DNA of 64,000 nucleotides from a bacterium (GCA_043811375.1 JBDRNJ010000057.1:3281-67280); one strand, 5' to 3'. Shown: positions 8,377 to 41,060, counted from the stretch's first letter. Translations and numbers: made by a program. The notes: a model not told the origin generated them from the sequence alone.

Positions 8377-9825
8377 TTAATCCACGCAGTTGACATCGAG
8401 TTTCCGGGCCGCCCCGACCTCGTCCAGTCGGCGCACCGGTGTGTCGTGCGGAGCGGTAGTGACTGTCTCAGGATCAGTGATGGCTTCCTGCGCGATCTGT
8501 TTCATCACCGAGGCAAAGTAGTCGAGTGTTTCCTTGCTTTCGGTTTCGGTCGGCTCGATCATCAGCGCTTCCGGAACGATAAGCGGGAAGTAATTGGTGG
8601 GCGGATGCATGTCAAAATCAAGCAGGCGTTTGGCGATGTCCAGGGCGCGGACGCCCTGTTTTTTCTGCCGCGATGCCGAAATGACAAACTCGTGCATGCA
8701 GGGGATGTCATAAGGCAGTTCGTAATCCCGGCGCAGCAGTTCTTTGAGATAGTTGGCATTCAGGACGGCGTGTTCCGAGGCTCGCCTCAGACCGGCTCCG
8801 CCCAGTGTCCTGATATAAACCCAGGCGCGCACTAAGTTGGCGAAATTGCCGTAGAAACTGTGCAACCGCCCGATGGAATGAGGGCGATCATAGTTGAAGT
8901 ACAGTTTTCCGTCGTTGTCCTCCTGCAGCAACGGCAACGGCAGGAATTTGTCCAATTCAGCGGTGACACCTAGAGCTCCGGCGCCCGGCCCGCCGCCACC
9001 GTGTGGGGTGGAGAATGTTTTGTGCAGATTGAAGTGCATGATGTCGAAACCGACGTCCCCGGGTCGAAAAATACCCATGTTGGCGTTGAGGTTGGCGCCG
9101 TCCATATAAAGCAGGCCGCCCCGCTGGTGCACGATGTCCGCAATTTCTTTGACGTGGGTTTCAAACAGGCCCAGGGTGTTGGGGTTGGTCATCATGATGC
9201 CGGCGACGTCTTCATCCATGACCTCGGCCACCGCCGATGGTGAAATAACGCCCTGCTCGTTGGAAGCGATCTGGATAGTGCTGAAACCTACCGACGCTAC
9301 CGATGCCGGGTTGGTGCCATGGGCCGAATCGGGGATAATGATATTACTCCGCGGTTGACCCCGGTCAATGTGACAGGCCCTCATGATCAGCAAACCGGCA
9401 AACTCGCCGTGGGCGCCGGCTACCGGTTGCAGTGAGATACCGGCAAAGCCTGAAATTTCCGACAGGAACTCCTGTAGTTCCCACATCAATTGCAGCAACC
9501 CCGGAGCCGAGCTGCATGGCGCCAGCGGGTGGTGACTGCGAAAGCCCGCCAGTGCCGCCGCGGCCTCGTTGGCCCGGGGGTTGTACTTCATGGTGCACGA
9601 CCCTAGCGGATAGAAACCCTTATCTATGTGATGGTTCTTGACCGACAACCCGATGAAGTGACGCATCGCTTCACCTTCCGTCACTTCCGGTAGCGCCGCC
9701 GGCTGCGAGCGCCGGTGTACCGCCGGAATAGCCGCCAGTATCTCCGATTCAGTTTTCATCGTTGACGGCAGTGTGTACCCGGTGCGACCACTTACCGACT
9801 TGTCGTATATCAATATCTTCTGCAT
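8377..9825 (-). CDS. gcvPB: glycine dehydrogenase (decarboxylating) subunit 2
   Basis: PLGSCTMKYNP, SAHGTNPAS and NLHKTFSTPHGGGGPG motifs. Confidence 0.96.
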   Translation of the reverse strand: MQKILIYDKSVSGRTGYTLPSTMKTESEILAAIPAVHRRSQPAALPEVTEGEAMRHFIGLSVKNHHIDKGFYPLGSCTMKYNPRANEAAAALAGFRSHHPLAPCSSAPGLLQLMWELQEFLSEISGFAGISLQPVAGAHGEFAGLLIMRACHIDRGQPRSNIIIPDSAHGTNPASVASVGFSTIQIASNEQGVISPSAVAEVMDEDVAGIMMTNPNTLGLFETHVKEIADIVHQRGGLLYMDGANLNANMGIFRPGDVGFDIMHFNLHKTFSTPHGGGGPGAGALGVTAELDKFLPLPLLQEDNDGKLYFNYDRPHSIGRLHSFYGNFANLVRAWVYIRTLGGAGLRRASEHAVLNANYLKELLRRDYELPYDIPCMHEFVISASRQKKQGVRALDIAKRLLDFDMHPPTNYFPLIVPEALMIEPTETESKETLDYFASVMKQIAQEAITDPETVTTAPHDTPVRRLDEVGAARKLDVNCVD

Positions 9826-9859: not shown

Positions 9860-10723
9860 CTACTTCTCCGCCTCGATTTCTCCCTTTAGTCCGGCTATCT
9901 GTTTCTGAGCGTACTCGACGTCTTCGGATTCAGGGTAGTGCTTTACGAACTGCTCGAAGGTCTCGATGGCCGCAGCGGTATCTCCCATCTGGCGGTAGAC
10001 TATAGCTTTCCAGACTTCGGCGTTTTCAGCAAACATGGAGCCCTCAAAATCAGTCATGACGGTAGTGAAAGTCTTAAGGGCGGCATCGTACTCTTTGTTG
10101 CGACGATGCACATCGGCTATGGCCAGAAGGCATTCACCGGACAGTGAATCATGTGGGTCACCGGCAGAAATAACTTTGTTATACCAGGCCGTCGCCTTCT
10201 CGGTGCCGCCGCGGTAGTGATACTTCTCTGCTATCCGGTATGCCAGAGAGCGATCATTGTTGGTCTCAGCCTGAGCCAGCAAGTCGACCAGAGTACCGAT
10301 CCCGTTCTTGTAATTGGTCAGTTCAATCAGCAGTGAATCGGGCGGCATATAACCGACCACCCGATCTACCTCGGCGCCCTGCGGATCAACCAGAACCAGT
10401 GTGGGGTAGCCCATGATATGGTAGGCGGCGGCCAGGGAGGTGTCCTGTTTGCCGTCTATTTTGGCCATAACCATTTCATTGGTGAAGAAGTCAATGACTT
10501 TCTGATCAGTCAACACGACCGTGTTGATCGTATCACACCACCTTCACGTCGGCGAATAAAAGTAGACTACGGCGTGCCGGTCATCGGCGGCCGCCTTGCT
10601 GATGGCCAGATTGGCGTCAGTTACGTATGGTGCCCTGGCGATGTCGTCCGTTACCCCGGCAGTAATTGTGACGGTAGCCGTCAGTACTACCACCATCATG
10701 ACAATAAGATGAACTTTGCTCAT
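9860..10723 (-). CDS. exported thioredoxin-fold selenoprotein (UxxC) with C-terminal TPR repeats
   Basis: From ATG 10723: signal peptide, then VVYFYSPT-TGA(codon 60)-RWC, in frame with the 9860..10516 ORF (GYPT cis-Pro motif, TPRs); SECIS-like hairpin follows. Confidence 0.88.
10510..10527 (-). promoter_or_regulatory. bacterial SECIS element
   Basis: mRNA UCAACAC-GGUC-GUGUUGA stem-loop starting 16 nt after the in-frame UGA at 10546-10544. Confidence 0.8.
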
Positions 10724-10747
10724 AACTGTTCCCTGTATACGTATTTT

Positions 10748-11140
10748 TTATAGTCCGTTACTTTCTTCCGGTTGAATCAACTCGTCACCCAGGACGGCTT
10801 CGAGAATCAATGCCGCCGCTTCGCGGTACTCACGGGGCACCATGATGATATTCCCGCCACCCGAGAGAGCGGCCAGGCCCAAATGATTATCGATTCCGCG
10901 GCCATAGGCGGAGAAACTCGAGGAGAGTATTACCGACGGGATATTGTTTGAGTCCAGCGAACCGCGTGCGATGTCGGACTTCATGTCACCGGCGACCTGA
11001 CCCACTATTGCCCATGAATCGTCCGGTGTCATCGCGGCAGTACCGGTTTCGGGAAGCCGGTCGACGAGTTCTTCGTCGCAGTCGGGGCAAACCCTGATGC
11101 CCGTTTCATATTCATATCGACAGGCGGGACAGAAGGACAC
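10748..11140 (-). CDS. zinc-ribbon + DUF2007-like (PII-like) protein
   Basis: CPAC...CPDC ribbon; IARGSLDSNNIP...IMVPRE pattern. Confidence 0.75.
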   Translation of the reverse strand: MSFCPACRYEYETGIRVCPDCDEELVDRLPETGTAAMTPDDSWAIVGQVAGDMKSDIARGSLDSNNIPSVILSSSFSAYGRGIDNHLGLAALSGGGNIIMVPREYREAAALILEAVLGDELIQPEESNGL

Positions 11141-11488
11141 TCAGTTTTCCTTTCTTCGCCACTTATCACCCACGGTCATATCCAGCACTTCGCAGGCTTC
11201 TTCGTGGAGGGCAGCCGGCACCAGTATTTCAAAAGGTGCTTCATCACCCCGGTAAAATGGCCGCAGCGGTAAACCGATATTGCCGAAAAAGCCGTTTTTG
11301 CATCGAAGCATCGCCGGGATGTTTGAGGAGACCAAGGCTTCGCGGGCCATGTCGGCGAATACTTTGTTTTCCAGTGTACCCAGCACGATCCACTCGTCTG
11401 TCGCAGCGTCGGGCAGTTTGTAGCCGCAGATGCAGCATTCACCGGAATCCCCCGGCAACTCATGTTTGCATTTGGGACAGAGTGCCAC
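11141..11488 (-). CDS. zinc-ribbon + DUF2007-like protein (paralog of neighbour)
   Basis: CPKC...CICG; MAREALVSSNIP...EILVP; overlaps the gcvPA end. Confidence 0.72.
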   Translation of the reverse strand: MALCPKCKHELPGDSGECCICGYKLPDAATDEWIVLGTLENKVFADMAREALVSSNIPAMLRCKNGFFGNIGLPLRPFYRGDEAPFEILVPAALHEEACEVLDMTVGDKWRRKEN

Positions 11489-12821
11489 CGGCTATTAACT
11501 CCCTGAGACCGTCGACCAAATCGCCGATCTCCTGTTCGGTTCGTTTCTCGGTGAGAGCCACAATCAGACAATCGTCCATGCCCGGATACCAGCGGCCGGC
11601 AGCGATGCCCGGCAGAACCCGGCGTTGAACCATGGTGCGGATCAGTTCCCGCGCCGATACCGGTATCCGCAGCGCAAACTCGCGGACAAACGGTTGGTCG
11701 AAATAAAGCCGGCAGCCCTCAAGTTCTTCAAGTGCTTTAGCTGCCTGCTGCGCCTTTTCGGCCGACAGCAGGGCTACCTGTCTGAGACCACTCCTGCCCA
11801 GTAGCGTCAGGTATACTGACGCTGCGGTTGCACACAGGGCCTGATTGGTGCAGATATTGGAGGTTGCTTTTTCACGCCGTATATGTTGTTCCCGCGTTTG
11901 CAACACCAGGACAAACCCGGTTTTGCCGTCGACATCGGTGGTCCGTCCGGCGATGCGTCCGGGCAGGCTGCGAACCAGTTCCCGGCGAGCGGCAAAGAAG
12001 CCCAGCAGCGGGCCGCCGAAGGAGAGCGGCAGACCCAGCGGTTGCCCTTCGCCGACCACGATGTCGGCTCCGTACTCGGCGGGAGTTTTCAGCAGAGCCC
12101 CAGCGATCGGGTCAATGGACACGATCAATTTGCCGCCGACGTTGTGAATGATCTCGGACGCCGCCGCCATATCTTCCAGGCAGCCGAAGAAGTTCGGTTG
12201 ACTCATCAACAGACAGGCCGTCCGGTCATCCACGGCCGCCTGCAGGCGATCCAAATCACACAGTCCCTCATCCATGGGAATTGTAATCAATGAAGCATCG
12301 CGACCGGAAAGATAGGTTGTAATCACCTCACGATAAAGGGGGCTGACTGTCTCGGCGACGATCACGTTGGGACGGCGCGTGCTCCTGGTTGCGATTACAG
12401 CCGCCTCGGCGGCGGCGGTGGCTCCGTCGTACATGGAAGCGTTGGCCACGTCCATGCCGGTAAGACGGCAGATGTGTGTTTGAAACTCGTAGATAACCTG
12501 CAACGTTCCCTGCGACACCTCCGGTTGATAAGGCGTGTAGGCTGTCATAAACTCCGGGCGGCTGATAACCGATCCGACAGCTGCCGGGATATAGTGATCG
12601 TAGACGCCGCCCCCGGCAAAACAGGCCAGGCCGCTCAGGTTGTTCTGCGACAGCTTTTCCGCTTCGCGCAACACTTCCATCTCGGAGTGTGCCGGTATAT
12701 CCAGCGGGCGTTGCAGCCGCAACTCGGTGGGTATGGAAGACAGCAGTTGTTCGATATCCGCCGCACCGATCTTTTGCAGCATGGTCAGGCGGTCGTTGTC
12801 GGTGTGGGGAACGTATGGCAT
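11460..12821 (-). CDS. gcvPA: glycine dehydrogenase (decarboxylating) subunit 1
   Basis: TAYTPYQPEVSQG, NASMYDGA and REQHIRREKATSNICTNQ motifs. Confidence 0.96.
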   Translation of the reverse strand: MPYVPHTDNDRLTMLQKIGAADIEQLLSSIPTELRLQRPLDIPAHSEMEVLREAEKLSQNNLSGLACFAGGGVYDHYIPAAVGSVISRPEFMTAYTPYQPEVSQGTLQVIYEFQTHICRLTGMDVANASMYDGATAAAEAAVIATRSTRRPNVIVAETVSPLYREVITTYLSGRDASLITIPMDEGLCDLDRLQAAVDDRTACLLMSQPNFFGCLEDMAAASEIIHNVGGKLIVSIDPIAGALLKTPAEYGADIVVGEGQPLGLPLSFGGPLLGFFAARRELVRSLPGRIAGRTTDVDGKTGFVLVLQTREQHIRREKATSNICTNQALCATAASVYLTLLGRSGLRQVALLSAEKAQQAAKALEELEGCRLYFDQPFVREFALRIPVSARELIRTMVQRRVLPGIAAGRWYPGMDDCLIVALTEKRTEQEIGDLVDGLRELIAGGTLSQMQT

Positions 12822-12874: not shown

Positions 12875-13255
12875 CTACTGCCCGATTATGCCCCTGTAGC
12901 CGGCGGCGTCGAGCAGTTCGTCGAGCTGGGACAGATCAGACATGTCAATCTTAATCATCCAGCCGTCGCCATACGGATCATGATTGATGATCATGGGGTC
13001 ATCCTCCAGTGCCGAGTTGACTGCGAAGACTTTTCCGCTCAGCGGCGAAAACATTTCCGAGACGGCTTTAACCGCTTCAATAGTCCCAAAAGCTTCCATT
13101 CTGGTCACCCGGTCGCTCTCGCCGGGCAGTTCCACGAAGACGATATCGCCGAGTTCACTCTGTGCATAGTCGGTGATACCGACTGTTGCGATATTGTCCT
13201 CAACCCTGACCCATTCGTGTTCTTCGGTATACTTCAGATCAGCCGGTACATTCAC
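12875..13255 (-). CDS. gcvH: glycine cleavage system H protein
   Basis: HEWV, GITDYAQSELGDIVFV, lipoyl EAVKA, DPYGDGW; GTG start behind GGAGG. Confidence 0.95.
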   Translation of the reverse strand: MNVPADLKYTEEHEWVRVEDNIATVGITDYAQSELGDIVFVELPGESDRVTRMEAFGTIEAVKAVSEMFSPLSGKVFAVNSALEDDPMIINHDPYGDGWMIKIDMSDLSQLDELLDAAGYRGIIGQ

Positions 13256-13270
13256 CTGCAACCTCCACAT

Positions 13271-24936: not shown

Positions 24937-25009
24937 TCCCGTGTAGCTCAGTTGGTAGAGCAGCTGACTGTTAATCAGCGGGTCGCTGGTTCAAGTCCAG
25001 CCGCGGGAG
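24937..25009 (+). tRNA. tRNA-Asn(GTT)
   Basis: Cloverleaf: TCCCGTG/CGCGGGA acceptor, GCTGA-CTGTTAA-TCAGC anticodon arm, GCTGG-TTCAAGT-CCAGC T arm; CCA not encoded (CTA follows). Confidence 0.97.
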
Positions 25010-39996: not shown

Positions 39997-41060
39997 GTAT
40001 GGAAGGCAGCACGCAAAACCCAAGGAAGAGTAAAAAGAGGGAGCGAATCATTGAGTACTTGTGGTTCAAAGCGACCAAGAAAAGGACTCTGCTTGTTTAT
40101 TGGCACCCGTCGCTGTGCTGGAGCCTTCTGCTGAACGCCCTAAAAATCCCAATCAGATGGTACCAGGAATACTATTATGCACCTTTCAATCTTACTGGGA
40201 CCTTTTACTTGCACACTGCTAGGAGAATCACCCAACTGATGTTCATAGTAATGTGCTACCTGACCTATCGGTATGGTTTGGGCGTTGGGTTTCTCTGGGT
40301 CGTCGGGCTGTTTTTTGTCCTTGTGCTAGTCGACTGTGTCGTGGCTCAGTGGACCGGGCTTCTGACGTTATCCTATGTGACCGATTCAACGCTGTTGGCG
40401 ATCATTGCGTCAAACTACAGGAATCTCAGGTCACTACGTAGCTTAAGGGATATAGTTGCTAACAACCTTCTTGGTGACCACCCCGCTATGAATACACCCG
40501 AGGGAATGGTGCAAGAAGATCAGGGTTTCAAGGAGGGTGTTGCCGAGATCTCTGAGGAGATTCTCATACGCCCGAATAAACAAAGAGTAGAAGTATTCAA
40601 GTTGGCCCTGCTTCCCCTGGGTCATGTGTTCAGTCTGCTGGTGTTCTGGGCGTTCATGGTGATTGCCATGCAAGCGGCGTGGGGCGGCTATGCCTTCAGG
40701 GGACTTCACCTGGCGAATGAGGATACCAGGTCGGTCAAGTCCTTTGGTCTCGATATGATCGACTGTGCCTACTTTTCTGCCGTCACGGTATCTACCATAG
40801 GCTACGGCCTGATCTTACCGGATGCTGCACCCGACGAGAAGGTGCGGACGGATTGTACACAGCGGATGCCCCAGACCACGTGGGTGCGATTCATAACTCT
40901 CGGCGTAATGTTGGTTGTGATTATTACGATTATTGGCACCTTCAACCTGACCTTTCAATCGGTGCAAGCGGTAACGCAGGCTCTCGGGGATTCAGATCGT
41001 GTCCAGCGAGTAGTGAGGCTCTATGCGATAGATGAAATCAAGTACCCGTTGGTGAGATAA
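39993..41060 (+). CDS. potassium-channel family (Ion_trans_2) membrane protein
   Basis: Pore helix and filter CAYFSAVTVSTIGYG between two TM helices; extra N-terminal TMs. Confidence 0.8.
   Translation: MSMEGSTQNPRKSKKRERIIEYLWFKATKKRTLLVYWHPSLCWSLLLNALKIPIRWYQEYYYAPFNLTGTFYLHTARRITQLMFIVMCYLTYRYGLGVGFLWVVGLFFVLVLVDCVVAQWTGLLTLSYVTDSTLLAIIASNYRNLRSLRSLRDIVANNLLGDHPAMNTPEGMVQEDQGFKEGVAEISEEILIRPNKQRVEVFKLALLPLGHVFSLLVFWAFMVIAMQAAWGGYAFRGLHLANEDTRSVKSFGLDMIDCAYFSAVTVSTIGYGLILPDAAPDEKVRTDCTQRMPQTTWVRFITLGVMLVVIITIIGTFNLTFQSVQAVTQALGDSDRVQRVVRLYAIDEIKYPLVR

Follow-up and report, generated by a model that had tools for sequence, protein, structure and literature searches.

Is the single in-frame TGA codon of a thioredoxin-like gene, located at positions 10546-10544 on the minus strand of the bacterial DNA stretch GCA_043811375.1 JBDRNJ010000057.1:3281-67280, a stop codon, as the gene callers have treated it, or does it specify selenocysteine (Sec)? 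The window analysed here is this whole stretch of 64,000 nucleotides, and all positions are counted from its first letter. When the minus strand is translated with genetic code table 11, two open reading frames (ORFs) are listed in the same frame, viz. a GTG-initiated ORF at 9860..10516 (218 aa) and, upstream of it, an ATG-initiated ORF at 10544..10723 (59 aa), which ends at the TGA. If TGA is instead translated as U, then 9860-10723 (-) gives a single product of 287 residues, followed by a TAG stop, and U60 (10546-10544) is its only codon outside table 11. The initial annotation, made from the sequence alone, had described the frame in this manner, as running upstream of the ORF at 10516 through one TGA to an ATG and as encoding a protein of 287 amino acids, and the ORF listing and the translation agree with it in both respects. 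The TGA codon (10544..10546, -) occupies the first, attacking position of a UxxC redox motif in the context FYSPT-U-RW-C, where the resolving cysteine (Cys) is encoded by the TGT codon 63 (10535..10537, -), and the active site accordingly reads U60-R-W-C63. The alignment of the coding sequence at 9860..10723 (-) to 27 Cys-containing homologues spans its whole length, and a Shine-Dalgarno-like AGGGA, read from the sequence at 10730..10734 (-), is located 6 nt upstream of the ATG (10723-10721), where it may serve in initiation. Based on the results described below, the TGA is almost certainly a real Sec codon in an exported thioredoxin-like enzyme that has been shortened by the gene callers, and a probability of about 0.88 is assigned to the reading that 9860-10723 (-) is one gene for a 287-aa selenoprotein, which would be decoded, exported and redox-active in the manner proposed here.

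Selenocysteine and cysteine forms of the protein

In the alignment of the read-through product with its full-length homologues, all 27 homologues have Cys at both position 60 and position 63, and position 63 is invariant in all 28 aligned sequences, which places the TGA at the site of the first Cys of the thioredoxin motif, as had been predicted. A search of a large protein collection identified 153 relatives, and among the best 120 of these the lengths are bimodal, with one class of about 212-225 aa and another of about 285-320 aa. The short class includes the window's own called protein (222 aa) as well as a relative (218 aa) that is 89% identical across the aligned part; some of the short entries are named only "tetratricopeptide repeat protein", and the names Candidatus Zixiibacteriota and FCB group occur among the relatives. 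The expectation that standard pipelines would mis-annotate the product is thus confirmed for this gene and for its relatives alike.

A single-protein search of genome contigs provided no confirmed relative, and the relatives came instead from a six-frame search of the genomes of the phylum, where matches were found in 269 of 285 genomes. By a hand count of the 150 matches listed, four of which do not extend to position 60, exactly one TGA and no other stop is present in 74. From these matches 70 loci were extracted, which form a chosen rather than a random sample, viz. the 30 best, 20 further TGA-bearing loci (10 of them from distant families) and 20 further stop-free loci. In all 43 TGA-bearing loci of this sample the TGA stands for the first residue of UxxC, and the remaining 27 loci (the Cys forms) carry TGC or TGT at codon 60. 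The sampled TGA-bearing loci come from several families of the phylum and their proteins show 30-57% identity to that of the window gene. Because codon 60 is TGA in every one of these 43 loci, the codon can be neither a sequencing error, nor a strain-specific nonsense mutation, nor the mark of a pseudogene, the first two of these having been named at the outset as findings that would overturn the selenoprotein reading. Contigs of sequencing runs from three studies extend over the TGA region of the window, and no RNA run is among the listed ones that contain it. The locus therefore shows what is expected of a selenoprotein gene, i.e. an in-frame UGA aligned with the Cys of homologues, and homologues with TGA in other organisms. 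Three related genomes contain two adjacent copies of the gene each; in two of them (G038, contig 3, and G043, contig 4) one copy has the TGA and the other is without it, and in the third (G044, contig 22) neither copy has a stop.

In public databases the whole family is shortened or mis-named, the TGA is carried by about half of the matches listed in the search of 285 genomes, and the shortened entries miss both the catalytic residue and the export signal. Correction of the family would change the inferred selenoproteome and the envelope redox biology of an uncultured sediment phylum, whose homologues are named Candidatus Zixiibacteriota.

The hairpin downstream of the TGA codon

The TGA is followed by 16 nt (10543-10528) and then by TCAACAC (10527-10521), GGTC (10520-10517) and GTGTTGA (10516-10510), which together form a hairpin at 10510..10527 (-) with a 7-bp stem and a GGUC loop, the distance from the UGA to the loop being 23 nt. 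The stem, the loop and the starting point 16 nt downstream are those given in the initial annotation, where this hairpin was put forward as a selenocysteine insertion sequence (SECIS). The GTG start chosen by the gene callers (10516) is the first base of its 3' arm. The energy of the hairpin is -7.9 kcal/mol in context, where it forms the tip of the minimum-energy fold if folding begins at the UGA, and -7.3 kcal/mol for the isolated 18-nt hairpin. The bacterial SECIS model quoted in a 2026 review (PMC13188914) specifies a loop of 3-9 nt that has G within the first two positions, a stem that is 4-16 bp long, a distance of 16-37 nt between UGA and loop, and an energy of -7.5 kcal/mol or lower; with a 4-nt GGUC loop, 7 bp, 23 nt and -7.9 kcal/mol in context, the hairpin in the window falls within all of these limits. 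A scan of the whole window with Rfam at the gathering threshold found no SECIS family and only one tRNA; this sole match is an ordinary tRNA gene at 24937-25009 (+). A competing 9-bp hairpin, GAUACGAUC / AACAC / GGUCGUGUU, can be drawn at 10510-10534 (-), overlapping the SECIS; it was rejected as a functional structure, its 5' arm not being conserved in relatives.

On the window sequence alone the evidence for the hairpin is weak. However, the comparative evidence from conservation, covariation and synonymous sites puts it far beyond chance and is considered decisive. Every one of the 33 same-family Sec forms retains all seven pairs together with the GGTC loop, at an unchanged offset. Of the 27 Cys forms, 7 still have the seven pairs and only 4 have the GGTC loop as well, and the others are variously decayed. 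In the alignment of the 33 sequences, pairs 26-32/37-43 are formed in all 32 distinct rows and changes on both sides are seen at two of them, viz. pair 27:42 (GC 21, CG 10, UG 1) and pair 30:39 (CG 29, UA 2, UG 1). The covariation score was reached by none of 500 shuffles, and when the partner was slid by 1-3 columns as a control, pairing occurred in only 27-50% of cells. An eighth pair (25:44), tried on the same alignment, is not conserved. The switch at 27:42 links a synonymous change of a Leu codon (CTC/CTG) with a Leu/Phe replacement five codons later. Further, third-base entropy was compared over 25 conserved four-fold-degenerate codons of the 33 same-family Sec genes, and inside the hairpin it is 0 for T68, 0 for V69 and 0.33 bits for V70, as against 1.06-1.95 bits for the other 22 codons. 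Based on these comparisons, the hairpin downstream of the TGA is judged to be under selection, and the earlier claim that its geometry matches that of known bacterial SECIS elements is upheld by the fit to the published model.

We also applied a bSECIS-like scanner of our own, which accepts perfect stems only and is too crude for bulged hairpins, and hence does not replace bSECISearch. At -7.5 kcal/mol it detected a hairpin in 7 of 33 same-family Sec forms, 3 of 10 distant Sec forms, 1 of 27 Cys forms and 56 of 3500 shuffles, and at -6.0 kcal/mol the corresponding numbers were 32 of 33, 3 of 10, 3 of 27 and 141 of 3500 (4%). The distant Sec forms (L049-L058) have other hairpins, one example of which is AGGUUG/GAGGAUU/CAACCU, located 18 nt after the UGA; the SECIS seems to have been replaced more than once in the distant families. 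The family provides a clean natural data set for SECIS elements, with one hairpin that is frozen at synonymous sites in all 33 same-family Sec forms and that is seen at differing stages of decay in the Cys forms.

In a maximum-likelihood tree of the 70 sampled genes, constructed with the Sec/Cys site masked, at least 13 changes between Sec and Cys are needed by parsimony, and 5 of these are forced by well-supported branches alone. Due to the sampling of distant families for Sec forms only, no ancestral state was inferred. One pair of loci, L040 (TGT at codon 60) and L045 (TGA), encodes nearly identical proteins and retains an intact GGTC hairpin in both members, which looks like a very recent switch between Sec and Cys.

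Selenocysteine machinery of the genome

Absence of the Sec machinery from the genome would have told against the selenoprotein, and it was suggested at the outset that selA, selB, selC and selD be sought. All four were found in the genome that holds the window, which is of 3.56 Mb and 95% complete. The genes selA (503 bits) and selB (324 bits) are adjacent on contig 68 and both score above the curated cut-offs, as does selD (389 bits) on contig 27, and the tRNA-Sec on contig 9 (68.5 bits) is also above its cut-off and is called by ARAGORN as tRNA-SeC(tca). The selD gene has an in-frame TGA of its own and probably encodes a selenoprotein itself; its locus (L007) is at 74133-75059 of contig 27 and contains this one TGA. 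Within the family to which the genome belongs, selA is present in 103 of 108 genomes. A selA match in one related genome (G129, contig 64, 9741-11075) also contains one in-frame TGA. A scan of the window for other Sec genes gave 15 TGA-split ORFs with Cys/Sec motifs; a candidate at 41033-41035 was rejected, as it overlaps a gene in a different frame, and the other 14 were judged by position only.

Domain architecture, fold and export

The protein consists of two domains following a signal peptide. The thioredoxin-fold domain covers approximately residues 36-139 (10307..10618, -), as delimited by Pfam, an AlphaFold2 (AF2) model and Foldseek, and it includes an invariant P107-T108 loop. The best Pfam match is Thioredoxin_2 (PF13098, 46 bits), followed by Thioredoxin (PF00085, 40.6 bits), both above their cut-offs over residues 45-132. 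The C-terminal helical domain, which resembles tetratricopeptide repeats (TPR), covers approximately residues 145-280 (9884..10291, -) and is recognised from Pfam TPR families (TPR_6, TPR_14, TPR_2 and TPR_12, all above cut-offs over residues 161-271), from the helices of the model and from its likeness to BamD. The AF2 model, based on the alignment of 28 sequences, has a predicted local distance difference test value (pLDDT) of 91.7 and a predicted template modelling score (pTM) of 0.82. In this model a strand at 50-56 is followed by residue 60 directly ahead of a helix at 61-70, which is the classic position of a CxxC motif, and eight helices between 145 and 279 come after the thioredoxin fold. 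P107 and T108 are invariant in the 28 sequences, and P107 would be the cis-Pro of the fold. Both hallmarks of a thioredoxin fold, i.e. a CxxC-type motif where the first long helix begins and a Pro loop, are thus found by Pfam and in the model. Taken one by one, the domains match in Foldseek thioredoxins, DsbD-gamma and DsbH (TMt 0.65-0.82) for the first and BamD for the second, and a profile search of the PDB agrees with this.

The NCBIfam library contains no curated selenoprotein model that covers this family. The best match in it, seleno_TsoB (50.1 bits against a cut-off of 805), is confined to one part of the selenoprotein TsoB, its C-terminal thioredoxin domain, and the matches to DsbD (37.1 against 330) and DsbH (33.1 against 190) are similarly due to the shared thioredoxin domain alone and do not place the protein in either family. 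The YbgF and BamD models match domain-wise, with scores far below their cut-offs.

The signal peptide, which the initial annotation had placed at the N-terminus, corresponds to approximately residues 1-22 (10658..10723, -) and consists of a basic start, a hydrophobic run of 18 residues and the residues TITA ahead of the likely cleavage site. A K/R start and a hydrophobic core are seen in all 28 aligned members of the family. A lipoprotein-box pattern is matched by 11 of the 28. The window protein is without the lipobox Cys, and its signal is probably of type I, with TITA as the last residues.

Proposed function of the selenoprotein

In the mechanism proposed here, the UGA at codon 60 would be decoded as Sec by SelB and Sec-tRNA(Sec), recruited by the 7-bp GGUC hairpin within the coding sequence 16 nt downstream. 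The product would be exported by means of its N-terminal signal peptide (many homologues would use a lipoprotein signal instead) and would join a thioredoxin fold, whose active site reads U-R-W-C, to a TPR domain similar to those of BamD and YbgF. Such a protein would most likely act in the cell envelope as a thiol:disulfide oxidoreductase, more probably as a reductase or isomerase than as an oxidase. The selenolate of U60 would attack a disulfide (or a sulfenic acid) of the substrate, C63 would resolve the mixed selenenylsulfide, and the TPR domain may hold a client or partner protein. The enzyme would probably be kept reduced by the DsbD-type membrane electron transporter of the genome, in which an open frame of 646 aa with a DsbD transmembrane domain is present. 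It is from the sequence that we infer the insertion of selenium, the export, the redox direction, the role of the TPR domain and the link to DsbD.

The protein could also be a real selenoprotein of a different function, viz. a DsbA-like oxidant that introduces disulfides, or a scavenger of the peroxidase type, instead of a reductase or isomerase fed by DsbD. An exported thioredoxin fold with a CxxC-type motif is also what DsbA has, and the redox direction is predicted rather than observed. However, neither DsbB nor VKOR, which could recycle an oxidant, was found in the 95%-complete genome, whereas a DsbD-type transporter is present, and the nearest relatives of the domain in both sequence and fold are DsbD-gamma, DsbH, thioredoxins and the PDI a-domains, and not DsbA. 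An oxidant or scavenger is for these reasons considered unlikely, and the reductase or isomerase is preferred.

Genomic context of the selenoprotein gene

The selenoprotein gene is part of a tight co-directional array on the minus strand, consisting of gcvH (12875-13270), gcvPA (11460-12821), two small zinc-ribbon genes (10748-11140, 130 aa, and 11141-11488, 115 aa), the selenoprotein gene itself and gcvPB (glycine cleavage P-protein subunit 2; 8377..9825). The gcv genes were identified from Pfam together with synteny or the conserved neighbourhood. The gaps that flank the selenoprotein gene are of 24 nt, on the side of the zinc-ribbon genes immediately upstream, and of 34 nt, on the side of gcvPB, the next gene downstream. 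The 130-aa and 115-aa proteins are paralogous and share an N-terminal CxxC...CxxC zinc ribbon; in Pfam both show weak matches to DZR and the 115-aa protein alone matches DUF2007, all of these being below the cut-offs.

This arrangement is retained in relatives. In the 30 best loci (L019-L048), gcvPA and gcvPB are present, together with one or more of the small zinc-ribbon genes, wherever the locus reaches far enough, the sole exception being L031, where gcvPA was not found. Among 10 longer loci (L089-L098) from six other families, with 30-40% identity, gcvPA is directly upstream in 9, and in 6 of these 9 gcvPB is also directly downstream; one of the 10 loci has neither. The selenoprotein gene and the two zinc-ribbon genes thus appear to form a conserved module between the genes for the P-protein subunits, which is kept from 30% to 57% identity across the phylum, and this position, being almost phylum-wide, presents a testable puzzle. 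The function of the module may be tied to that of glycine cleavage or glycine synthase, for example if it served as a Se-dependent redox link, or as a sensor, that connects the lipoyl-dependent glycine system with the envelope, a suggestion that we regard as speculative and rather improbable. The alternative is that the module rides along in the gcv operon without a functional tie. A replacement of the glycine-cleavage L-protein by the selenoprotein was also considered and is not favoured, as lpd and gcvT are present elsewhere in the genome and the protein is predicted to be exported.

Alternative interpretations of the TGA codon

Three other explanations of the TGA codon dispense with Sec altogether. 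According to the first of these, translation stops at the UGA and a second initiation takes place at the GTG at 10516, which would yield an exported peptide of 59 aa and, separately, a TPR protein of 218 aa. A GTG start does exist at this position and it is the one used by the gene callers. However, a start at this GTG would cut the thioredoxin fold just past the active-site helix and the TPR part would lose its signal peptide, whereas the Cys forms are single polypeptides; further, the GTG is also the first base of the 3' arm of a conserved hairpin, and a complete Sec machinery is present in the genome. A restart is therefore highly improbable.

The second explanation is that the TGA is a true stop in a dead or truncated gene, whether it came about by nonsense mutation, marks a pseudogene or reflects an error of assembly. 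Table 11 does break the frame at this codon and the public gene calls treat the TGA as a stop, but this explanation has to contend with the recurrence of the same TGA at the same codon in all 43 TGA-bearing loci from several families at 30-57% identity, with the conservation of both halves of the protein, which fold as one domain, and with a dedicated downstream hairpin that appears to be under selection, and it is effectively refuted by these comparative data. Lastly, read-through of the UGA as a standard amino acid, whether by a reassigned code or by near-cognate insertion of Trp or Cys, would likewise yield the full-length protein, but it is scarcely credible in view of a single TGA per homologue that never occurs elsewhere than at the Cys position (with a reassigned code, TGA would be dispersed over the length of genes), of neighbouring genes whose table-11 ORFs cover all or most of the Pfam models that they match, and of the presence of a SECIS and of selABCD.

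In weighing the selenoprotein interpretation itself, several observations count against it or limit its force. The fold of the single 71-nt sequence is not significant (z = -0.86) and its minimum-energy fold favours the competing 9-bp hairpin. The GGUC hairpin is absent from the 10 Sec forms of distant families, where the crude scanner finds a simple SECIS-like hairpin in 3-4 of the 10 and where the remaining forms have, by eye, bulged hairpins with GGCC or GGCA loops at about 41 nt from the UGA, which is outside the 16-37 nt of the model. The LDTVV[LF] motif, which is conserved as protein, partly constrains the nucleotides of the hairpin, and some of the conservation of the hairpin is due to coding constraint or recent ancestry, as 7 of the 27 Cys forms still have the full stem. 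The homologues are relatives of one another and the counts made across them are accordingly not independent. Incorporation of selenium and expression of the gene are predictions from DNA, and the redox direction and the link to DsbD are deduced from which genes are present or missing in a genome that is not complete. Lastly, a function in the envelope does not account for the conserved place of the gene within a cytoplasmic glycine-cleavage operon.

Comparison with known systems

Proteins with a thioredoxin fold and a UxxC motif are the commonest class of bacterial selenoproteins. Two reviews of prokaryotic selenoproteins list both "Thioredoxin (PF00085, UxxC)" and [quoted passage not shown], and the rule by which they define a family is the domain together with the Sec motif (PMC9312934, PMC13188914). 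By this rule the window protein would belong to the "Thiol:disulfide interchange protein" family on account of its best match to PF13098 and its UxxC motif, and the gene falls, by the same rule, in a known class of selenoproteins. As far as the reviewed UxxC selenoproteins are described in these sources, the window protein shares with them the fold, the best Pfam families (PF13098/PF00085), the position of Sec and the occurrence of Sec/Cys homologue pairs; it is set apart from their descriptions by its signal peptide (a lipoprotein signal in some homologues) and by the fused TPR domain of about 140 aa. The words "TPR" and "tetratricopeptide" are absent from the main texts of PMC9312934 and PMC13188914 and "Zixibacter" from the main text of PMC13188914, as judged by term searches of these texts, and the main text of the deep-Sep paper contains none of TPR, tetratricopeptide and Zixibacter. 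In literature searches covering listings and abstracts, neither a selenoprotein that combines thioredoxin with TPR nor a thioredoxin gene located between gcvPA and gcvPB was the subject of any paper, and full-text searches on selenoproteins of Zixibacteria and on selenocysteine in connection with tetratricopeptide and thioredoxin gave nothing relevant. The UxxC thioredoxin-fold kind is therefore known, and its fusion to TPR was found in no paper searched; the supplementary lists of the survey papers may already contain the family under a generic name.

In overall architecture the protein is similar to CnoX/YbbN of E. coli (PDB 3qou), which also has an N-terminal thioredoxin fold and C-terminal TPR at a similar length and is the top full-length Foldseek hit (E 1.7e-8). 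However, the identity is 13%, the TM-score 0.31 and the root-mean-square deviation 22 A, so the domains are oriented differently, and 3qou is absent among the best 60 of 287 PDB profile matches. CnoX is cytoplasmic and its E. coli form presumably lacks the first Cys, whereas the window protein has a signal peptide and Sec. The likeness to CnoX/YbbN is thus in architecture only and the protein does not belong with it.

Among the reductive thioredoxin folds of the periplasm, the thioredoxin domain aligns with the gamma domain of DsbD (E about 1e-15, TMt 0.74-0.77) and, in both sequence and fold, with Chlamydia DsbH, and DsbD-gamma and DsbH share with the window protein a location in the envelope, which for the latter is predicted. 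We take its C-x-W-C type of motif to resemble that of DsbH/DUF255. The window protein differs from DsbD and DsbH in being without a membrane domain and in having Sec and a TPR domain.

The hairpin can similarly be compared with the fdhF-type SECIS of E. coli. The window stem is perfect, without a bulged U, and its distance from the UGA to the loop is 23 nt, whereas the fdhF stem has a bulged U. In both cases, the hairpin is located within the coding sequence just past the UGA and has a small apical loop beginning with GG, and the loop of the fdhF minihelix is also GGUC.

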